Notes under the pieces: generated by a model
The model's database searches: none
What the model was told of the DNA's origin: nothing
The model's input: the letters and a program-made list of their open reading frames with translations, nothing else
In this document: positions 31,101 through 43,897 of the stretch, piece by piece
Layout: each line of letters opens with the position of its first letter
How positions within the stretch are numbered: position 1 is the first letter of the stretch
From: an uncultured Gemmatimonadales bacterium
GTDB lineage: Bacteria; Gemmatimonadota; Gemmatimonadetes; Longimicrobiales; RSA9
Assembly: GCA_963741945.1 (NCBI GenBank)
Contig: CAVUKA010000001.1
Span: forward strand, 898,560-962,559
Reading direction: 5' to 3'
DNA: 64,000 bases
Position numbers and translations under genes: made by a program

Positions 31101-32579
31101 GTGAAGCTCCGCGGGTTCCGCATCGAGCTGGCCGAGGTCGAGGCCGCCCTTCGCCGCTCCGCGGGTGTGCGGGATGCCGTCGTCGCGCTCCGGGGCGAGG
31201 GGGCAGGGCGCCACCTCGTCGCCTATGTCGTGACCGGTGAGGACGCCGTGGACCGCTCGACGCTGCAGGACCAGCTCCGCGAGCAGATTCCGGCCTACAT
31301 GGTTCCGACGGCCGTGGTCGCCCTCGATGCGCTCCCCCTCACGCCCAGCGGGAAAGTCGATCGGCAGGCGCTCCCGGAGCCGGACCCGGTCAGGGTCGGC
31401 GGAGCTCGTCCACCTGGAGATCCTCTCGAGCGCCAGATCGCCGCCATATGGGCGTCTCTCCTCGGTGTCGAGGCCGTGAGCGCTCGGGACAGCTTCTTCG
31501 ACCTGGGGGGGAATTCGCTCCTCGCCCTGGAGATGGTTCGCCGCGTGGAGAGTACCACTGGCCGGCGCCTCGAGCTTCGGGCGCTATTCGAGGAGCCCAC
31601 TGTGGCTCATCTCGCCCGCGTGGTCGCCCGCGAGGCGACCTCCACCACCTCCTCCGTCGTCCAGGTGCGAGAAGGGGATCCTGGCGTCCCCCCCTTCATC
31701 TTCTTTCATGGTGACTTCAACGGTGCGGGGCTTTACACTCGCAGATTGTTGGCCGAGATCGATGAGAGTCAGCCGGTCTATATCGTCCACCCACACCAAC
31801 CGGGCGGGCCGGAGACGATCGAAGCCATGGCCCAGGACCTCTACCCCGCCGTGCGCCGTGTACGCCAACATGGCCCCTTCCGCCTGGGCGGCCACTGCAA
31901 CGGGGGCGTCGTGGCGTTCGAAATGGCCCAGCGACTCGTCGCGGCAGGCGAGACCGTGGACCTGCTGGTCCTGGTGGACGTGCCAGGTCGCAACATCGGC
32001 CTGGCGCGCTACGCCGCCTTCCTCGACCAGGTCGGTCATGCGGCCCGCCTCACCTCCGAACGCCGCCGCGCCCTCTTCCGGGCGACGCGTGGATCGGCTC
32101 AGCGGCTGGTGCATGGCTGGATGAGCGCGGGAGAAGGGGGAGGTTCGTATCTCGCCGCCCCGCGGCGAACTGTCTTTCTCAGCTCCTGGCTGGTCGGTGA
32201 AGCCCGCCGTGTCGCGACCCGTCTCTTCCACGCGGTCCGCCGATGGACGGGCGGCGCAGACGCGTCCCGGCCTCGCCACCCGTACGTGGAGCGACTCGAA
32301 CGAGCAGCCTACTTCGGTTTGGCCATGGAAGCCTACGTCCCCAAGCGCTTTGCTGGCCCGGTCGTCATCGTTGCGCCCGAGCAGGAGAGTACGGACTCCG
32401 TGTCCGTTTCCGCACCGGCTCGGCTCTGGGCCCGGGTTGCCGATCACGCCGAGGTGTTCCGGATCGACGGCGATCACCTGAGTGTGATCGCGGAGGACAG
32501 TCAGCCCTTCGGTCGTCTTCTCGCCCGTCTGCTGCGCCAGGCAGGGCGCCCGCTCCGGGGCGCCAACCCTCGTGAGTGA
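25152..32579 (+). CDS. non-ribosomal peptide synthetase, two modules: C-A-T-C-A-T-TE
   Basis: C1 HHIAFDGWS (nt 25746). A1 LAYMIYTSGSTGTPKGV. T1 GGHSLSA (Ser 28365-28367). C2 HHTAADGWS (28932). A2 LAYVLYTSGSTGRPKGV. T2 GGNSLLA (Ser 31515-31517). TE elbow GGHCNGG (Cys 31896-31898) with GDHLSV. No E domain motifs seen. TGATG overlap with the upstream gene. Confidence 0.95.
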   Translation: MPMATPPPESLSHLSPAARDLLARRSRADESSSAGSEPLRHRPGATEAPLSFGQQQVWFFEQLEPGSAVYHLPKEVRLRGPLDVPALERALGEVVRRHEILRTRYGTLADGAIRQLVLPAAGRVELPCVDVTASATQTDEPSDGTLAQPEALARGEGSPWRRQVGLDALRPFDLAAGEVLRAKLYRFGSEDHLLHLVFHHIAFDGWSMGVFLRDLASAYGGALRGDATLPPLPIQYGDHAAWEVSRLESGRFDDVIDYWRRRLRGAPPESTFPASRPRQVDRTYAAAQEHRRLPDHLKSALHDMARRQNATESAVLLAAFQVLLARHSGARDVVVGVPVAGRTRSEQEDLVGYFVNMLPARLDLADDPSFRQVVDRVRTGLLEGFDHQTVPFDRIISDLRVHRDAGITPLFQVAFNDRILPNQGAEFEGLDVEMRAGFHARHLLDLSLEVGHVAGTIECDLTYSLELFDPGYARTLLPQLETVLQAMIADPDAAITAAPLLRPAERSRIIEAGRGPRRPVPPSTLIHELVQEQAARDPEASAIIGDEETLTYGEMRRRAASLAARLRNAGIAPETRVGVFVDRSPGQIVALLGVLEAGGAYVPLDPSYPRERLAFIAHDSGMEAIVTTRRLRSRVPLDSIPALCLDDPSTPDGSDAAPASVIRNVPSDPLAYMIYTSGSTGTPKGVEVTHASVANLAAAERDLLRVAPADRVLQFSTINFDVSVAEIFTSLTAGAAVVVCTPSMLTSVPQFVRACEAKGVTLLSMSTALWHELVVSLAEGDVEMPPAVRTVMIGGEAARPDRLELWRRHGSGIPLINGYGPTETTVFATAQDLTHPVAGEDAVVPIGRPLHNVDVHVLDERMAVVPAGVPGELYIGGLCVGRGYHDRPELTAERFLPDPFSARPGGRLYRTGDIVRRREDGALDFLGRRDNQVKIRGFRIEAGEIEVAMAAHPSVRTAVVVPRPDGVGDLRLVAYVVPASGVFDRRVLADHLRRSLPEYMIPTAFVRLTELPLLPNGKVDRKALPEPDPVGEAAFEPPRGPRESALCEIWENVLGVQPIGRNVDFFDVGGHSLSAMLVVGRAEAALGMEVPLRAIFEHRTVARLAAFLERAERERGALFPPIETGTDVPAPLSFAQRRLWFLDRLAPGRPTYNIPLAFQLRGHLDPSALRSALRRIVERHEPLRSWIREGVSGPVQVVAPADLFELAVEEVPGGPEDSQPRVLRRLEEEAHRAFQLSDEIPFRAHLFRLGAREHVLFLCLHHTAADGWSVDILFAELEALYGAALARAEPDLRALPVSYSDYAKWQHRHEGLLQPGLERWVKRLQGARALELPVDRPHTGVQSGAGGESRARLDGHVLEELRDLARSEQTTLHVALLTAFHVMLSRLSGQDDIVVGTPVAGRVRPELEPLVGMFANTVPIRVDLSGEPSFLEALRRVRAVTLAVYGDEAVPLEAMVEASGVERDGSANPLIQVAFALAADGRRAPRLHGLEVEDLELQTATAKFDLYLAANPNADGLALRLEYDADLFQGRTAAHLLELFKTLVSAAVADPERPLADIDLSDDEERQWAVDWNRTERPFPGDTVHELFTTVAARTPDAVAVEDPHERLTYADLDGRSAALAGQLVSLGVEAGERVGVFMEPGAPLVVSMLGILRAGACYVPLDPALPGQRLALLIEDAGIRHVVASGRVPPGLRATGVEIVEARDGRDQRLRDVARPASVAATANDLAYVLYTSGSTGRPKGVAVPHRAIVRLVRNSDYVDLRTDDVVAQVSTPSFDAATFEIWGALLNGARLTIPDSRLLSPRELEGFLRDRGVTTLFLTTALFNQVSRERPAAFGSLRQLLFGGETADAEAARRVLDGGAPPKRLLHVYGPTENTTFSTWYAVQHVPPGAATLPIGRPIANSTAWVMDARGKLQPRGLWGDLYVGGVGVAAGYLGAAAAEADRFVPDPFANAPDRRLYRTGDRARWNLDGELEFGGRLDTQVKLRGFRIELAEVEAALRRSAGVRDAVVALRGEGAGRHLVAYVVTGEDAVDRSTLQDQLREQIPAYMVPTAVVALDALPLTPSGKVDRQALPEPDPVRVGGARPPGDPLERQIAAIWASLLGVEAVSARDSFFDLGGNSLLALEMVRRVESTTGRRLELRALFEEPTVAHLARVVAREATSTTSSVVQVREGDPGVPPFIFFHGDFNGAGLYTRRLLAEIDESQPVYIVHPHQPGGPETIEAMAQDLYPAVRRVRQHGPFRLGGHCNGGVVAFEMAQRLVAAGETVDLLVLVDVPGRNIGLARYAAFLDQVGHAARLTSERRRALFRATRGSAQRLVHGWMSAGEGGGSYLAAPRRTVFLSSWLVGEARRVATRLFHAVRRWTGGADASRPRHPYVERLERAAYFGLAMEAYVPKRFAGPVVIVAPEQESTDSVSVSAPARLWARVADHAEVFRIDGDHLSVIAEDSQPFGRLLARLLRQAGRPLRGANPRE

Positions 32580-33321
32580 GATCGCGCGTTCTGGTGAGCC
32601 GCCCCCGCTACAACCCGACGAGGTTCATGTCTGGCGCGCTGTTCTCGGGCTCGATCCAGCGGTCGAGCCAATGCTGGACCGTTTCCTTTCACATGCCGAG
32701 CACAGGCGCGCGACGCTGTTCCACCGGACAGCCGATGCCCGGCTCTTCCGCTTCGCGCATGGTTTCCTGCGACTGATTCTCGCCCGCTACACCGGCACCC
32801 TCGATCCAGGCGCGATCTCGCTGGCGAACGATGCTCGGGGAAAGCCGCGGCTTGCCCGCGCCAGCGGCTGCCGTCCTGTCGAATTCAATCTCTCGCATTC
32901 CGGGGATGCGGTCCTTGTCGCTTTGACCCGAACTCGGCACGTCGGTGTCGACGTCGAGACCCTGGATCGCGCGCCCGATGCCGAGGCCATCGCCCGTCGC
33001 TTCTTCGCTGCGCCGGAGCTGGCCCGCATTCTCGCCAGCCCGCCGGCGCAGCGTGCCGGGTTATTCCTGCGACACTGGGTCATGAAGGAAGCGTTCGTGA
33101 AAGGGTTGGGGCTCGGTCTCGGCGCCATCGACCTCAAGGCGTTCGCCATGGACCCCGACGCCACGAATGGACGCATCCATCCGCTCACGCGCGAGATGCA
33201 CCGGCACTCGAAGACCTGGGCAGTGGCCGAGGTCGCGGCCCCTGAGGGCCACGTCGCCGCCGTTGCCGTCAACACCCCCGTGCTCCGCTGGAAGGGCTTC
33301 GCCTGGCAAGGCCCGATCTGA
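32572..33321 (+). CDS. Sfp-type 4'-phosphopantetheinyl transferase
   Basis: FNLSHSGDAVLVAL, VGVDVE and WVMKEAFVKGLG motifs. GTG start overlaps the NRPS stop (32572-32579). Confidence 0.85.
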   Translation: MSEIARSGEPPPLQPDEVHVWRAVLGLDPAVEPMLDRFLSHAEHRRATLFHRTADARLFRFAHGFLRLILARYTGTLDPGAISLANDARGKPRLARASGCRPVEFNLSHSGDAVLVALTRTRHVGVDVETLDRAPDAEAIARRFFAAPELARILASPPAQRAGLFLRHWVMKEAFVKGLGLGLGAIDLKAFAMDPDATNGRIHPLTREMHRHSKTWAVAEVAAPEGHVAAVAVNTPVLRWKGFAWQGPI

Positions 33322-33556: not shown

Positions 33557-35191
33557 GTGAGTTTCAAGAATCTGGGCACGCGGATCGCCCTGACCGCGGG
33601 TTTTTTCACGCTCGTCAGCGTGGGGCTCCTTTCGTTCATCCTGGTCCAGCGTCAGCGGGAGCAGGTGCGGGCGGAGGTCGTGCATGGCTCGGAGAGCCTG
33701 GCGGACGCCATCGCGCTGAGTGTGCACCGGGACATGCAGCTGAACCACCGCGGGGGCGTCCGCGAGATGCTCGAGACGGTAGGCCAGCACGAAGGCATCG
33801 CCGGCATTCGCCTGTACAACCGTGAAGGCCGCATCTCCTACTCTTCCGACCCGGCCGAAGTCGGGCGGGTGGTGCCCCGGAGCTCCGAAGCCTGCGTGAC
33901 GTGCCATGCCAACGGGCAGGCGACGGCAACCGTGGAGCCGGACCGCCGCTGGCGCATCTTCACGGGGCAGGATGGGGAGCGCCTGCTCGGGACGATCCAC
34001 GTGATCCGCAACGAGCCCGGGTGTCAGGGAGCCGGGTGCCACGCGTCGCCGGCACAGCAGAGCGTGCTCGGAGTCCTGGATGTGGCCATGTCCATGGCGC
34101 CCGTGGAGCGCCGCCTGGCCTCCGACACCCGCGACGCGCTCCTGATCTCCCTCCTCGCCGTCGCGGTGATCACGCTCCTCCTCGTGCTCCTGGTGCGCCG
34201 GAGCGTGCGTCGCCCGATCCAGCGGATGGTGAGCGCCACGCGGCGGATGGTGGAGGAGACGGGGTCGCTCCCCGTGCCCCGCGGGACGGCACCGGAGATC
34301 GCGATCCTGGCCGAGTCCTTCAACGAGATGATCGAGAGCCTGGCGAGCTCGAAGCAGCGCCTCGAGGACTGGGCGGAAACGCTCGAGGAGCGCGTCTCCT
34401 CGAAAGCGCAGGAGCTCCGGGAAGCCCAGTTCGAGGTGCTCCAGGCGGAGAAGCTCTCCTCCGTCGGCCTGGTAGCGGCCGGGATCGCCCACGAGCTGAA
34501 CAGCCCGCTCATGGCCATCATCACCTTCTCGCACCTGGTCAAGTCGGCCGTGCCCGATGACGAGGGCGCGCAGGAGGACCTCCGCATGATCGAGCGGGAG
34601 GCGAACCGCTGCGCGGCCATCATCCGGCAGCTCCTCGACTACTCGCGTAAGCAGGCGGAAGACCCGGAGACCCACCCCCAATCCGTGGCCCCGGTGCTCG
34701 AGCGGGCGCTCGAGCTGGTGAAGGTGGAGCTTCAGAATGGCGGCTTCCGGGTGACGACCGAGCTGTCGCCCGACCTCCCCTCCGTCGAGGTGAACGATCA
34801 GCAGCTCATGCAGGTGTTCGTCAACCTCATCATGAACGCGCTCCACGCCATGGGCGACGACGGTGGCGAGATCCTGTTCCGGGGCGACACCGTGCGGCGC
34901 GACGATTTCCCGAACGTGGACTGGCCGCTCCACGGTGGCACCGAAGCCGTCCGCATTCGCGTCCGGGACACCGGGCCCGGGATCGCGCGGGAGAAGTTCT
35001 CGAAGATCTTCGATCCGTTCTACACGACCAAGCCGGTGGGCCAGGGCTCCGGCCTCGGACTCGCCGTATCCCTCGGGATCGTACGCGGCTATCGGGGTAC
35101 GATCATGGTGGACAGCGATGGCGAGTCGTGGACGGAGTTCACGATCCTCTTGCCGACGGCGGAGAACCCTGCAATGGCCTTGACCTCATGA
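33557..35191 (+). CDS. sensor histidine kinase with extracytoplasmic domain carrying c-type haem-binding motifs
   Basis: GTG start with GGAGG upstream. TM1 (FFTLVSVGLLSFILV), sensor region with CVTCH (33893-33907) and CQGAGCH (34022-34042), then TM2 (LLISLLAVAVITLLLVLLV). HAMP-like linker, H-box AHELNSPLMAI, NLIMNALHAM, VRDTGPGI, GSGLGL. Confidence 0.85.
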   Translation: MSFKNLGTRIALTAGFFTLVSVGLLSFILVQRQREQVRAEVVHGSESLADAIALSVHRDMQLNHRGGVREMLETVGQHEGIAGIRLYNREGRISYSSDPAEVGRVVPRSSEACVTCHANGQATATVEPDRRWRIFTGQDGERLLGTIHVIRNEPGCQGAGCHASPAQQSVLGVLDVAMSMAPVERRLASDTRDALLISLLAVAVITLLLVLLVRRSVRRPIQRMVSATRRMVEETGSLPVPRGTAPEIAILAESFNEMIESLASSKQRLEDWAETLEERVSSKAQELREAQFEVLQAEKLSSVGLVAAGIAHELNSPLMAIITFSHLVKSAVPDDEGAQEDLRMIEREANRCAAIIRQLLDYSRKQAEDPETHPQSVAPVLERALELVKVELQNGGFRVTTELSPDLPSVEVNDQQLMQVFVNLIMNALHAMGDDGGEILFRGDTVRRDDFPNVDWPLHGGTEAVRIRVRDTGPGIAREKFSKIFDPFYTTKPVGQGSGLGLAVSLGIVRGYRGTIMVDSDGESWTEFTILLPTAENPAMALTS

Positions 35192-36651
35192 CCGACGAAG
35201 TGAGCTGGACCGAGCCCCCGCACGTGCTCGCCGTGGATGACGAGCAGGTGGTCTGCGAAAGCATCCGCCGCGTCCTCACCGGCGAAGGCTATGTGGTCAA
35301 GACCACCACCTCCCCGCGCGAGGGCCTCGACATGATCCGCAAGGAGACGTTCGACCTCCTGCTCCTCGACATCAAGATGCCCGAGATGGACGGGATCGAG
35401 CTCCTGCGCCGCGTCAAGGACCTGTCTCCAGAGACCGAAGCCATCGTCATTACCGGCTACGGCACCATCGAGACGGCCATCGAGGCCACCAAGCTCGGCG
35501 CCTTCGACTACCTCGAGAAGCCCGTCAGCCCCCCGGCTCTCATCGTCACCACGGCCCGCGCACTCGAGCGCAAGCACCTCGTCGATCTCACCCGGCGTCT
35601 CCGCTCCGAGCTCGACACCCGCTATTCCGTGGGCAACGTGATCTGCTCCTCCCCCGCCATGCGCAAGGTCATGGACCTCGTGGCCAAGGTCGCTCCCACC
35701 AACAGCACCGTGCTCATCACGGGAGAGACCGGCACCGGGAAGGAAGTCATCGCGCGCGCGCTCCATTACAACAGCCGTCGCAACGACGGGCCGTTCATCG
35801 TTGCCGACTGCGCCTCGCTCAGCGAGTCCCTCCTCGAGTCCGAGCTCTTCGGCCACGTCCGCGGCGCCTTCACGGGTGCCGCCAGGGACCGGAAGGGCCT
35901 CGCCGAGGCCGCGCGCGGCGGAACGCTCTTCCTCGACGAGATCAGCACCATCTCCCCCAAGGTGCAGGGCAGCCTCCTCCGCCTCATTCAGGAGCACGAG
36001 ATCCGACCCGTCGGCGCGGACAGGACCATCTCCGTCGACGTCCGCGTCATCGCCGCCACCAACCGCGACCTCCAGGAGCTCGTCGATGACGGCTCCTTTC
36101 GCGACGACCTCTTCTACCGCCTGAGCGTCTTCGCCATCCGCCTCCCGCCCCTGCGCGAGCGCAAGGAAGAGATTCCGCTCCTCGCCCACCACTTCGTCCA
36201 GCGCATCGGCGAAGAGGTCGGCAAGCAGATCGACGCCATCTCGCCCCAGGCCATGGCCCTCCTCGAAGCCCACGACTGGCCCGGCAACGTCCGCGAGCTC
36301 GAAAACGTCATCGAGCGCGCCGTCCTGCTCTCCGAAGGACGCACCATCCAGCCCCAGGCCGTTCCCCTCGCCGCCGAACACTCCGCGGCCCGCTGGGACG
36401 ACGTGCCCGACGACGCCGCCACCCTCGCAGAACGGAAGAAGGAGATCCGCGCCCAGGCCGTCGAGGACCTCGAGAAGCTGTTCGTCCTCAAGGCCCTCCG
36501 CGGCGCCGACTGGAACGTCTCCGAAGCCGCCCGCCGCGCCGGCATGCAGCGCCCCAACCTGCACGCCCTCATGCGCAAGTACGACATCACCACCCCGTCC
36601 GGCGACACCGGGGAAGAAGACACGGAGCAAGAGGGCGCCGGGGCATCCTGA
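35188..36651 (+). CDS. sigma-54-dependent response regulator (NtrC family)
   Basis: Start ATG 35188 (MTDEVSW), ATGA overlap with the kinase stop. REC (VLAVDDE, LLLLDIKMPEMDG), GETGTGKE, ESELFGHVRGAFTGA, HTH (AARRAGMQRPNLHALMRKY). Confidence 0.9.
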   Translation: MTDEVSWTEPPHVLAVDDEQVVCESIRRVLTGEGYVVKTTTSPREGLDMIRKETFDLLLLDIKMPEMDGIELLRRVKDLSPETEAIVITGYGTIETAIEATKLGAFDYLEKPVSPPALIVTTARALERKHLVDLTRRLRSELDTRYSVGNVICSSPAMRKVMDLVAKVAPTNSTVLITGETGTGKEVIARALHYNSRRNDGPFIVADCASLSESLLESELFGHVRGAFTGAARDRKGLAEAARGGTLFLDEISTISPKVQGSLLRLIQEHEIRPVGADRTISVDVRVIAATNRDLQELVDDGSFRDDLFYRLSVFAIRLPPLRERKEEIPLLAHHFVQRIGEEVGKQIDAISPQAMALLEAHDWPGNVRELENVIERAVLLSEGRTIQPQAVPLAAEHSAARWDDVPDDAATLAERKKEIRAQAVEDLEKLFVLKALRGADWNVSEAARRAGMQRPNLHALMRKYDITTPSGDTGEEDTEQEGAGAS

Positions 36652-36722
36652 CGCCTCTTCTCCACCCCCTCTTCGGACGGGGCGCCATGGCTCCATGGCG
36701 TCCTCCGATCCACCCCTCCTGA

Positions 36723-36747
36723 GGGTGTATATCCTTCGCATACACCC
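36723..36747. promoter_or_regulatory. upstream activator site candidate 1 (GTGTAT-N9-ATACAC palindrome)
   Basis: GGGTGTAT-ATCCTTCGC-ATACACCC, with perfect 8-bp inverted arms. Confidence 0.55.
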
Positions 36748-36838
36748 ATCGTGACCCCACCAAGAAGCACCCTAAGTCAATAGGCCACAACGCATTATGG
36801 ATACCCTGTCCCGATTCTCTCCCCTCCCCCGGCCGTGA

Positions 36839-36861
36839 GGTGTATACGGTCTGTATACACT
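36839..36861. promoter_or_regulatory. upstream activator site candidate 2 (GTGTAT-N9-ATACAC palindrome)
   Basis: GTGTAT (36840-36845), 9-nt spacer, ATACAC (36855-36860). Same core and spacing as site 1; centres are 115 bp apart. Confidence 0.55.
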
Positions 36862-36954
36862 CTCGCCCCTTCCAGGCCCCTCACCGCCCGATCGCACTAC
36901 CCGCTAACGCTTTGTGCACCAACGTGTTATGGAAATCGTGATAAAATTCCCATT

Positions 36955-36972
36955 TGCGGCACGACCGTTGCC
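36955..36972 (+). promoter_or_regulatory. sigma-54 (-24/-12) promoter
   Basis: tgcGGCACGaccgTTGCc: GG at 36958-36959 and GC at 36970-36971 (12-nt offset) fits TGGCACG-N4-TTGC. It lies about 45 nt upstream of ATG 37014 and downstream of the two palindromes and an AT-rich stretch (36921-36950). Confidence 0.7.
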
Positions 36973-37013
36973 CTCTACAAGGCCGAACGGGATCGGGTCC
37001 GGAGTGGACGGAG

Positions 37014-37442
37014 ATGGGCTGCCCGAGGAAGGAGGGGCCGGAAGTGGGAGCACGGGAACAAGGATCCACGGTCTTGCTGTCGGATGCTGGCGGCTACGGC
37101 GCGCTGGCGGGCCGGCTGTCGGGCTCCGGGCACGCGGTGGTGTGGTACTCGAGCCTGGAGGAGCTGCTCCGGGAGCATCCATTGTCGACGATTGCGGTGC
37201 TGGTGGTGCACGGCAAGGCGGCGCCGAAAGGGGTGCTGCTGGCCACGCTGGGTCGGATGAACCTGGAGTACCCGCGCATGCAGAAGGTGGCGGTGATGGA
37301 AGGTCCGCTGCCGCTGCCGATCGCCGAGTACCTGACCGCGTGCGGAGTGGAGCTGGTGTGGTCGGAGTCGCGGGAGGAAGCGTTGACGCGGCTGACGACG
37401 GTTCTGGAGCGTGTTCACGAGCGTGCGGGCTGGCTCGCCTGA
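37014..37442 (+). CDS. receiver-like (pseudo-receiver) domain protein lacking the phospho-acceptor Asp
   Basis: 142 aa from ATG 37014 (GGAG SD). Alternating beta/alpha pattern with G/C-rich third positions. STVLLSDAG replaces the DD pocket and IAVLVVHGK has His where the acceptor Asp is expected. No conserved Thr/Lys. TTG 36954 is rejected because it lies upstream of the sigma-54 promoter. Confidence 0.6.
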   Translation: MGCPRKEGPEVGAREQGSTVLLSDAGGYGALAGRLSGSGHAVVWYSSLEELLREHPLSTIAVLVVHGKAAPKGVLLATLGRMNLEYPRMQKVAVMEGPLPLPIAEYLTACGVELVWSESREEALTRLTTVLERVHERAGWLA

Positions 37443-40375: not shown

Positions 40376-40406
40376 CGCCCGCGAGCCCCTGGCGACGCAT
40401 GGATCC

Positions 40407-40437
40407 GGGCCCGCCGACCGTCACGGTCGGCGGGCCC
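40407..40437. terminator. bidirectional terminator hairpin between convergent genes
   Basis: GGGCCCGCCGACCG-tca-CGGTCGGCGGGCCC: a 14-bp perfect stem between the cytochrome stop (40375) and the purA stop (40444). Confidence 0.6.
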
Positions 40438-40443
40438 TCGCCG

Positions 40444-41733
<1,290 letters not shown>

Positions 41734-41740
41734 GCGGTGA

Positions 41741-42943
41741 CTATGGCCCGCCGTCGCGCTCCCCCGCAAGACGCGATTTCCCGTCCGATGCCAGCATGCG
41801 CATCGCGGCGGCGAGCAGGGTCGCGCCATCGGCCGCTCCCCGGCCGTCCAGCCGCTCCGCGGAGTCGCCCGGACGATGCACGCGCAGGAGCGAGCGGCGA
41901 CGGCCTCGCAGCACCGTGAGGGCGGGGAAGCCGGCAGCGGCGAGCGGCACGTGGTCCGCGGTGAGCAAGCGCGGCAGCCGTTGCCGCCGCACGGGCAGCT
42001 CCAGCGCGCTCGCCGCGGTCAGGAGCGCCGCGGCCAGGTGAGGCGCGCTCCCCCGCCGCCGGGCCCAGCCGTATCCCTCGGCCACGTAGAAGGGGCCCTC
42101 GTCGTCCAGGCCGTCCACGTTGATCACGCCCTGCACCGGTGGCAGCCGGGTGGCCACGTCGCGGGCACCGGCAAGGTCCATCTCCTCGGCATCGGTGATC
42201 AGGAACGCGATGTCGCCCCGTTCCTCCCGCTTGGCCACAGCCAGCAGCGCGGCCAGGCCGGAAGCGTTGTCCAGCGCCCCCGGGGAGCTGTTGCTCACCC
42301 GACCGCCGGCGAGCACGATGCCGCACGCCACCAGCACGCCGCCCGCCGCGATCTGTGGAGCGCCGAGACCACCCACGCCGACCAGCTCCAGCGCCGCGAG
42401 CGCCACCAGTCCGAGCCAGGCCGCCACGGCCCCGGACGCCGCCAGGCCGCGCGCCAGCGTCGGGATGCTCTGCCCTTTCGAGTCGCGGTGCGCCATGAGG
42501 ATCCATCCCGGCCGGCGGCCGGGGCGCCGGAAGAGCAGATTGGCGCCCCGAACGCGCGCCCACGGGAGGCGTCTCGTGGCCAGACTCCCCAGCGCGATCG
42601 GCAGGAGGGCCAGCGCGAGCGTCGCGCCGAGCACGGCGAGTGCGGACACGGCGAGGCCGGTGCGCAGGAGCCACGTGGCCGCCACGCCGCCGAGGACGAT
42701 CGCGACCGCGGACGCCATCAGGCCGAAGCGGCCATGGAGCGTGGAAAAGGAGAATTCGAGCGTTTCCGCTTCGTACCCGAGCGCGGCGAAGCGCTCACGG
42801 AGTTCGGCCTCCACGGCATCCGCCCCCTCCGAGCCGCAAAGGCGGGGTCGAGCCAGCGCCCGCACGTGGTCGCGGATCTCGGAACGGTCGGTGGGCGGGA
42901 CTTCGGCGGCCTGCGCGCGGGCTTCCTGGATATCGATCGGCAT
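41741..42943 (-). CDS. M28-family metallopeptidase with inserted transmembrane segments
   Basis: M28 metal-ligand motifs ILMAHRDS, GALDNASG, DAEEMDLAG and TADHVPL, interrupted by hydrophobic stretches. Confidence 0.7.
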   Translation of the reverse strand: MPIDIQEARAQAAEVPPTDRSEIRDHVRALARPRLCGSEGADAVEAELRERFAALGYEAETLEFSFSTLHGRFGLMASAVAIVLGGVAATWLLRTGLAVSALAVLGATLALALLPIALGSLATRRLPWARVRGANLLFRRPGRRPGWILMAHRDSKGQSIPTLARGLAASGAVAAWLGLVALAALELVGVGGLGAPQIAAGGVLVACGIVLAGGRVSNSSPGALDNASGLAALLAVAKREERGDIAFLITDAEEMDLAGARDVATRLPPVQGVINVDGLDDEGPFYVAEGYGWARRRGSAPHLAAALLTAASALELPVRRQRLPRLLTADHVPLAAAGFPALTVLRGRRRSLLRVHRPGDSAERLDGRGAADGATLLAAAMRMLASDGKSRLAGERDGGP

Positions 42944-42964
42944 GACCCCGGCGTTCGGTTGACC

Positions 42965-43897
42965 TCAGATCAACCCTGCCTCCTGCATCACCCGGGCCAC
43001 GCCGGCGCGCTGCTTCTCGCTCAGCGGGCTCAGCGGCGGCCTGGGCGGGCCGCCTTCCCAGCCGAGGAGGTCCAGTCCGGCCTTCACGCCCCGGGCCCCG
43101 AACGCCGCCACGATGTCCCGGTGAGCCGGGGTGAGCCGCTCCTGGATTGCGCCGGCCTCCCGCAGCCGACCCGCCCGGAAGTGCTCCAGCATCTCGCCAT
43201 ATTCCACCGGAGCGAGGAGCCCGAGGGCGACGATGCCGCCCGCGGCTCCCATTTCGAGCGCCGCGTAAAGCAACGCGCCACTGCCCACGAACAGCTGGCA
43301 TGAGCCGTCGCAGGCCTCCGTGTACTCGGCGAAGCGCTTCAGGTCCCCGGAAGAATCCTTGATCCCCGCGATGTTGGGGTGGCGAGCGAGCTCCCCCATG
43401 AGGCCGGGATCGAGGGTGACGTGGGTGAACTTCGGCATGTGGTACACCAGCACGGGCACCGGCGATGCGTCGGCGACGGCCGTGTAGTGGTCACGCAGGT
43501 CCGCGGCGGACAGGGACACGCCGAAGTACGACGGCGGATGCACCAGCACGGCGTCCACGCCGGCGTCGGCGAAGCGCTTCGCTCGCCGGACCACTCCGCG
43601 CGTCGACTCGGCGCCCGCCCCGGCCACGAGCGGCCGCATGGATGGAATCACGTCGCGTGCGTATTCCGTCAGGCGCACCATCTCGTCTTCGTCCAGCAAC
43701 GCCCCTTCACCCGTGGAGCCGAAGACCACGAATCCGTCGATGGGAGTCTGCAGCCACCGGCGCAAGCTGTCGCGGAAGCTCACCGGGGCGATATCGCCCG
43801 TCACGGGGTCGAACGGCGTCGTCACGGGGACGAACAGGCCGGACAGCCACCCGTGGTCCGTTTCGCCTCGGCTCCGCTCCTCCGCTCGCTCAGGCAA
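42965..43897 (-). CDS. DapA/N-acetylneuraminate-lyase family (class I aldolase) protein, second paralogue
   Basis: GFVVFGSTGEGALLDEDE and general DHDPS-family layout. Distinct from the dapA at 48398..49294. Confidence 0.75.
   Translation of the reverse strand: MPERAEERSRGETDHGWLSGLFVPVTTPFDPVTGDIAPVSFRDSLRRWLQTPIDGFVVFGSTGEGALLDEDEMVRLTEYARDVIPSMRPLVAGAGAESTRGVVRRAKRFADAGVDAVLVHPPSYFGVSLSAADLRDHYTAVADASPVPVLVYHMPKFTHVTLDPGLMGELARHPNIAGIKDSSGDLKRFAEYTEACDGSCQLFVGSGALLYAALEMGAAGGIVALGLLAPVEYGEMLEHFRAGRLREAGAIQERLTPAHRDIVAAFGARGVKAGLDLLGWEGGPPRPPLSPLSEKQRAGVARVMQEAGLI

Follow-up and report, generated by a model that had tools for sequence, protein, structure and literature searches.

A conserved, predicted sigma-54 promoter with two upstream palindromes lies between a haem-motif two-component system and a multihaem cytochrome operon in Gemmatimonadota

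How is a membrane cytochrome operon controlled when a sensor kinase and a sigma-54 activator are encoded immediately upstream of it? The question is raised by a 64,000-nt stretch of DNA from an uncultured Gemmatimonadales bacterium (contig CAVUKA010000001.1 of assembly GCA_963741945.1; the window hereafter), in which the intergenic region between the activator gene and the operon holds two copies of one palindrome followed by a -24/-12 promoter element (Table 1). Gemmatimonadota are known mostly from metagenome-assembled genomes, and no regulatory work on the phylum was found in the literature searched. A first-pass annotation had read the region as a near-consensus sigma-54 promoter preceded by two phased operators for the adjacent activator. 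The computations presented here cover the sequence elements and how specific they are statistically, how far their positions are conserved in 14 loci, and which domains the encoded proteins contain; the observation is real and the earlier reading is supported by strong comparative evidence. The region probably contains a sigma-54 promoter with two upstream palindromes, driven by the two-component system encoded just upstream, and the most likely arrangement is one in which a sensor kinase with haem motifs switches on a membrane cytochrome operon.

Firstly, the two palindromes stand out within the window. The distal upstream activating sequence (UAS-D) reads GTGTATATCCTTCGCATACAC and the proximal one (UAS-P) reads GTGTATACGGTCTGTATACAC; their centres lie 115 bp apart, as had been claimed, and they are the only 2 exact copies of GTGTAT-N9-ATACAC in the 64 kb. 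The 9-nt spacers, previously described as identical, share their length and differ in sequence. The inverted-repeat arms are really 8 nt long (UAS-D, GGGTGTAT/ATACACCC; UAS-P, GTGTATAC/GTATACAC) with a 5-nt spacer, and a repeat finder independently returned the pair both as a 22-nt direct repeat at 115-bp spacing and as perfect palindromes with 8-nt arms. With up to 2 mismatches allowed the window contains 3 matches to GTGTAT-N9-ATACAC against 0.27 expected, a count that was reached in none of 100 shuffles.

Secondly, the promoter element is placed and oriented as a sigma-54 promoter of the operon should be. The string at 36958-36971, GGCACGACCGTTGC, has the 12-nt GG-to-GC offset of the annotated GGCACG-ACCG-TTGC, and the distance from the centre of UAS-P to the -24 GG, put earlier at about 108 bp, measures 108 bp. 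Read as cGGCACGACCGTTGCc, with GG and GC 10 nt apart, the element scores 10/12 against TGGCACG-N4-TTGCW. It is intergenic and points at the operon, its GG lying 86 nt upstream of the GTG start codon at 37044 (69-86 nt in the scanned orthologues), and the predicted transcription start falls near 36983. By itself the string is not improbable, exact GGCAC-N5-TTGC occurring 2 times in the window against 0.63 expected and at least twice in 19 of 100 shuffles, and the promoter call therefore rests on position, context and conservation. Scans of 36500-37200 detected neither a sigma-70-like promoter nor an intrinsic terminator, while an Rfam scan of 36600-37200 at E <= 1 gave no match, so that the palindrome and promoter region is not a known structured RNA.

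Thirdly, the arrangement is conserved. The comparison set comprises 14 independent Gemmatimonadota loci on contigs fetched from the family of the first operon gene product (the pseudo-receiver described below) and from relatives of the activator; a metagenome scan with the activator, in which paralogues dominated the matches, gave one usable extra orthologue (locus L144). The module of histidine kinase, activator, intergenic region, pseudo-receiver, membrane-anchored receiver and multihaem c/cytochrome b fusion recurs in the 14 loci with different flanking genes, and thus behaves as one unit. A GG-N10-GC promoter is found at the equivalent place in 14/14 loci, within intergenic DNA that is otherwise poorly conserved, which supports the sigma-54 assignment; 13 of these elements score 8-12/12 against TGGCACG-N4-TTGCW, the weaker GGCAT-N5-CTGC of L144 was read by eye, and the 14-locus consensus is GGCAC.ccc.TTGCcttt. 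The UAS-P centre lies 106-109 bp upstream of GG in 13/14 loci. Together the loci provide 27 sites with the consensus gTGTATR-N7-YATACAc, in which G at -8 and C at +8 never vary and the spacers show no conservation. The positions of the palindromes thus hold across orthologous loci beside a protein with receiver (REC), AAA+ and HTH_8 domains and a GAFTGA loop, the geometry of an enhancer-binding protein that had been proposed.

The palindromes are also specific to this region. In 183 kb of orthologous loci the motif with at most one mismatch occurs 24 times, against about 2.5 expected from the control density, and all 24 matches lie in this intergenic region; the control, 1.26 Mb of loci with paralogous activators, contains 17 scattered matches of which 1 is exact. 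The motif is therefore not the common genomic repeat that the first-pass annotation had named in advance as one of the findings that would overturn it. The arms keep their sequence and not merely their complementarity, and where the outer base changes from G to C the other arm does not compensate, which points to the palindromes as protein sites; the alternative of RNA hairpins was rejected for these reasons.

The half-sites of the Escherichia coli SOS box, CTGT-N8-ACAG, are equal to CTGTAT and ATACAG, and several proximal sites (in loci L167 and L170) read CTGTAT...ATACAG, as they would if the palindromes were LexA-type boxes and the GG-N10-GC match fortuitous. This reading was rejected on spacing and context and we regard it as highly improbable: the sites have the form (C/G)TGT-N13-ACA(G/C), so that CTGT and ACAG are separated by 5 bp, or half a helical turn, more than in an SOS box; G and C are equally frequent at their outer base; the promoter, from which they lie more than 100 bp upstream, is itself conserved in 14/14 loci; and the products of the operon are cytochromes and receivers rather than repair proteins.

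The distal palindrome is present in 13/14 loci, with a gap to UAS-P of 113-117 bp in 10, 102-103 bp in 2 and 81 bp in 1, so that the phasing proposed earlier is only loosely conserved. The gap varies more (81, 102 and 103 bp) than the distance from UAS-P to GG, UAS-D is missing in locus L169 and in the window lies 74 bp past the activator stop codon, and the GlrR system can dispense with its most distal site (PMC3045617); these points would suit a distal palindrome that is not an enhancer but acts at the 3' end of the kinase-activator transcript, as a terminator or roadblock, or serves as an operator for autoregulation, with UAS-P alone serving the promoter. We consider this unlikely, since UAS-D shares the UAS-P consensus and is thus more than a hairpin, the region scanned shows no terminator-like structure, UAS-D lies 220-224 bp from GG in 10 loci, and in about half of the loci a further conserved element (E2, below) keeps a fixed position between UAS-D and UAS-P. 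Two sites serving one promoter accordingly remain the preferred arrangement.

The candidate for the protein that binds these sites is the activator itself. It gives Pfam matches to Sigma54_activat (5.8e-68), Response_reg and HTH_8, the last a Fis-type helix-turn-helix (HTH), and its GAFTGA loop is intact within ESELFGHVRGAFTGA. The ATG at 35188 overlaps the stop codon of the kinase gene, and the orthologues begin at the equivalent Met. The protein falls below the cut-offs of all NCBIfam equivalogs tested (AtoC, ZraR, NtrC, GlrR, NtrX, NifA and NorR), the best score being that for AtoC (446.7 against a cut-off of 714; ZraR, 419 against 760; GlrR, 356 against 763), and as judged by these profiles it is a generic NtrC-family regulator rather than any named equivalog. 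Its orthologues (72-77% identical) come from Gemmatimonadota assemblies only, all other matches being paralogues at about 45% identity or less, and a search of a protein database with its C-terminal 97 residues returned 10 short fragments only, which say nothing about relatives outside the phylum or about BccR. The recognition helix GMxRPN[LF]HALMRK is kept in 11 of the 12 orthologues for which the activator C-terminus is available. A regex search found no second GAFTGA protein in the 64-kb window, leaving one activator only. A hairpin with near-perfect 11-nt arms (GGGCGCCATGG/CCATGGCGTCC; 36680-36703) lies 29 nt beyond the stop codon of the activator gene; a T-run is absent, and the structure was not scored as an intrinsic terminator.

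The partner kinase is distinguished by its periplasmic domain, in which CVTCH at residue 113 (113-117) is followed by CQGAGCH at residue 156 (156-162). Both the CXXCH and the CX4CH motif are kept in all 9 orthologous kinases aligned, including the divergent kinase of locus L165, and no Pfam domain covers the stretch that contains them. The pair of motifs suggests that the domain is a putative dihaem-c sensor. Among the collections searched the kinase-activator pair occurs only in Gemmatimonadota.

Between the palindromes and the promoter lies a second kind of conserved element. The first-pass annotation had pointed to an AT-rich stretch (36921-36950) that could bend DNA. The AT-richness is real, with a GC content of 0.40 at 36915-36959 against 0.53-0.73 in the flanking 30-nt windows; the conserved element is, however, 36905-36929, and the A/T run at 36930-36950 is kept by close relatives only. 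This element, termed E1, is a palindrome and a putative site for an architectural, IHF-like protein. In leave-one-out weight-matrix scans E1 is the top match on both strands in 11/14 loci and among the best four in the other three (L161, L165 and L172). The mean best match of the loci to the IHF consensus WATCAANNNNTTR is 6.93/9, compared to 6.16 +/- 0.18 for shuffled sequences (0/300 reach 6.93), and these matches cluster at -35/-36 on the forward and -47 on the reverse strand, which correspond to the two halves of E1. The best matches reach 7-8/9 in 10/14 loci with the CAA-N4-TTA core at a fixed position, a comparison in which the consensus is that of E. coli and the element is palindromic.

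A second copy of the element, E2, lies between the two palindromes, and E1 and E2 were recovered together by the repeat finder as a direct repeat (D2). With the leave-one-out matrix built on E1, E2 is the best site outside E1 in the window and in loci L161, L001, L165 and L167 (centre at -64 to -66), and it ranks third to fifth in 4 further loci. Its centre is 64-66 bp upstream of that of UAS-P in 9 loci and 56 bp upstream in L170. The resulting layout in the window is UAS-D, 50 bp, E2, 65 bp, UAS-P, 67 bp, E1, 41 bp and GG, and the fixed place of E2 between both upstream sites in about half of the loci suggests a cooperative architecture.

Several observations weigh against this account of the region. 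Locus L169 has a single palindrome, 116 bp from GG. The 115-bp gap between the two sites is wider than that of the classic NtrC or DctD tandem sites. E1 fits the E. coli IHF consensus modestly (7-8/9) and is palindromic, unlike canonical IHF sites. Regex searches of the 64-kb window found no rpoN, and no ihf or hup (HU/IHF) genes were found in the window in the same way. Finally, locus L165 (genome GCA_040960765.1) keeps both palindromes, but the activator beside them (L165 3332-4675) shares only 43% identity and its recognition helix, VDRATVYNKIKKYG, differs, which weakens a one-to-one link between HTH and motif; the L165 kinase is 31% identical and has the haem motifs too. Either one TGT...ACA-type repeat is read by different HTHs, or another protein binds the sites.

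The second of these options, extended to the whole family, would keep the promoter sigma-54-dependent and assign the palindromes to an activator encoded elsewhere, a repressor or a co-regulator. Along with the divergent HTH of L165 it can draw on locus L170, in which other genes lie between the two-component system and the operon while the operon has kept both sites and the promoter at their usual distances, so that the sites travel with the operon and not with the regulator gene. However, the L170 kinase is still less than 5 kb away, the shared recognition helix accompanies the sites in all but one of the loci where it can be read, and a position 106-109 bp upstream of -24 is typical of an activator site. 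TGT...ACA-type repeats are read by many activators whose HTHs are unlike, NifA among them. GlrR likewise binds such repeats (PMC3045617). We judge binding by another protein to be distinctly unlikely. Binding of the palindromes by the adjacent activator is probable, and it is because of L165 that we do not place it higher.

The predicted target of the promoter is an operon of three genes. The first encodes a 132-residue protein whose GTG start is backed by orthologue lengths and by L144, and which has no Pfam or NCBIfam match. Its AlphaFold model (predicted local distance difference test, pLDDT, of 79) finds receiver domains as the best Foldseek matches, and as the protein lacks the conserved phospho-acceptor Asp it is called a pseudo-receiver. 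The family comprises 104 clusters, whose taxon-bearing source names are all Gemmatimonadota, Gemmatimonadetes or Longimicrobiales. The second gene, for a receiver protein with a C-terminal transmembrane (TM) helix, is kept in all loci. The third encodes a fusion of multihaem cytochrome c and cytochrome b, a putative quinol oxidoreductase, and comes third in the operon wherever the locus is full, being split or partial in L171. The fusion protein does not reach the cut-off of any named cytochrome family (DmsE-type, 76 against 192). In other phyla its b-domain has homologues (40-45% identity) that are separate genes following a multihaem c gene. P0138, a distant stand-alone homologue of the b-domain, belongs to a split c and b gene pair that adjoins a NarL-type two-component system and not a sigma-54 one; cytochromes of this type are therefore not universally under sigma-54 control.

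In many orthologues a stable GC-rich stem-loop with z = -2 to -4.3 lies at the 5' end of the predicted operon leader (L165 4942-5003, L167 4957-5003, L002 7727-7790 and L162 4943-5003). The leader in the window (36983-37046) has no significant structure (z = -0.48), and the stem-loop was for this reason left out of the model.

Table 1. Positions of the predicted genes and sequence elements in the 64,000-nt window
Feature	Position	Strand	Description
Large open reading frame (ORF), 2,475 aa	25152-32579		Counterpart in locus L161 is a nonribosomal peptide synthetase (Condensation, AMP-binding, PP-binding)
Phosphopantetheinyl transferase	32572-33321		Pfam; follows the 2,475-aa ORF, just upstream of the two-component system
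Sensor histidine kinase	33557-35191	+	TM, periplasmic domain, TM, HAMP, HisKA, HATPase_c (Pfam)
Sigma-54 enhancer-binding response regulator	35188-36651	+	REC, AAA+ with GAFTGA, Fis-type HTH_8
UAS-D, distal upstream activating sequence	36725-36745	.	GTGTAT-N9-ATACAC; centre 36735; 223 bp upstream of -24 GG
E2, second copy of palindromic IHF-like element	36773-36797	.	TAA-N4-ATA-N5-CAA-N4-TTA; centre 65 bp upstream of UAS-P centre
UAS-P, proximal upstream activating sequence	36840-36860	.	GTGTATAC-N5-GTATACAC; centre 36850; 108 bp upstream of -24 GG
E1, palindromic element	36905-36929	.	TAA-N4-TTG-N5-CAA-N4-TTA; centre 41 bp upstream of GG, about -65 from predicted start
Predicted sigma-54 promoter	36958-36971	+	cGGCACG-ACCG-TTGCc; -24 GG 36958-59, -12 GC 36970-71
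Pseudo-receiver, 132 aa, first operon gene	37044-37442	+	(beta-alpha)5 CheY-like fold; ribosome-binding site AGGAGG 37030-37035
Receiver protein with C-terminal TM helix	37478-38095	+	Canonical DD/D/T/K residues; Pfam Response_reg 2.6e-27
Multihaem cytochrome c/cytochrome b fusion, 752 aa	38117-40375	+	15 CXXCH; C-terminal membrane Ni_hydr_CYTB (Pfam)

For the events at this promoter (binding, looping, the signal and the start site) we infer a course from the established mechanism of bacterial enhancer-binding proteins. The kinase would probably sense a redox or ligand signal and phosphorylate the REC domain of the activator, dimers of which would occupy both gTGTATR-N7-YATACAc palindromes through the Fis-type HTH, the phosphorylated protein assembling into an active AAA+ ring. 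The DNA would be folded by a bending protein at E1, which lies between UAS-P and the promoter, and in about half of the lineages also at E2, which lies between the two upstream sites, so that the ring is brought onto the sigma-54 holoenzyme in its closed complex at 36958-36971. ATP hydrolysis would then open the promoter, and a transcript starting near 36983 would carry the pseudo-receiver, the membrane-anchored receiver and the 15-haem c/cytochrome b fusion. The mechanism is an ordinary enhancer-dependent sigma-54 architecture of a known kind, to which the palindromic E1/E2 element is added here.

A more elaborate version, in which a homodimeric IHF/HU-type protein occupies E1 and E2 to form a two-tier enhancer, its two bends stacking the activator dimers on the holoenzyme, with the dihaem-c kinase as the switch, is put forward tentatively and we hold it to be doubtful. 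If it were true, it would amount to redox-gated control of a quinol oxidoreductase like that of Geobacter (CbcBA), and low-potential or extracellular electron transfer in Gemmatimonadota would by implication be a regulated process.

The closest functional analogue of the system, as far as gene content and published description allow it to be set, appears to be BccR and cbcBA of Geobacter sulfurreducens. There BccR (GSU0598) activates the sigma-54-dependent cbcBA operon (GSU0597-0593) at low redox potential, and the operon contains one or more hypothetical proteins, a response regulator, a multihaem c-type cytochrome and then a quinone-oxidoreductase-like b-type cytochrome; c-b gene fusions in other phyla were reported in the same study (10.1101/2021.04.15.440034). 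Compared by description, both systems place a regulator with REC, sigma-54 AAA+ and HTH domains beside a target operon of matching gene content. They differ in that the window regulator is co-directional with its operon and has a haem-motif kinase as its partner, bccR being divergent; in that the c and b parts are fused in the window, with 15 CXXCH motifs against 7 haems in CbcA; and in that the first gene of the window operon is of a family known to date from Gemmatimonadota only.

For the regulatory DNA the nearest described design is that of GlrR (QseF) of Enterobacteriaceae, likewise an NtrC-family response regulator with TGT...ACA-type inverted repeats more than 100 bp upstream of its promoter. 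At glmY and glmZ a sigma-54 promoter is preceded, at more than 100 bp, by three TGTC-N10-GACA sites, with two IHF sites in between, and the most distal site is the least conserved (PMC3045617). In contrast to these, the window has two sites with a 19-bp motif (TGTAT-N9-ATACA) in place of three with an 18-bp one (TGTC-N10-GACA), its activator is far below the GlrR cut-off, and the target is a protein operon instead of a small RNA. Features in common with the NtrC, AtoC and ZraR enhancers are the activator's domain architecture and GAFTGA loop, inverted repeats of dimer size some 100-150 bp upstream, and a putative bend element between these repeats and the promoter. The window departs from those enhancers in that the sites are about 115 bp apart rather than adjacent, and in that the bend element is palindromic and is duplicated between the sites in about half of the loci.

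The locus provides an operator (gTGTATR-N7-YATACAc), a promoter, a probable bend element and a three-gene target for the kinase-activator pair. With a 15-haem c/cytochrome b fusion as the target and a kinase carrying haem-c motifs as the sensor, it is a candidate redox-responsive switch for a respiratory branch. This candidate switch is analogous to BccR/CbcBA of Geobacter and could mark that physiology in Gemmatimonadota genomes from soil and sediment.

Several genes lie beside the module. Upstream, among the orthologous loci only L161, the closest relative, has a counterpart of the 2,475-residue ORF, which is therefore not part of the module. Downstream, directly after the cytochrome gene, two co-directional ORFs (40399-41919, 506 aa, and 41876-43303, 475 aa) have no Pfam or NCBIfam match and are absent from every orthologous locus including L161; they are likewise outside the module and may be an insertion. 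In L165 and L170 genes for Fer4/NrfD, GCV_H and cytochrome c3 proteins lie beside the module.

The second exact GGCAC-N5-TTGC match of the window, GGCACAGGCGTTGC at 59149-59162 on the reverse strand, lies about 59 nt upstream of a gene for a YtxH-like small membrane protein (start at 59090, reverse strand), which is followed by one for a trehalose-6-phosphate synthase (GT20; 57310-58851). On the forward strand a REC-GGDEF gene (59408-60466) has TGGCACCAGACGTGCA (59330-59343) about 65 nt upstream. The two elements may be divergent sigma-54 promoters, and neither an activator gene nor a palindrome occurs near them.

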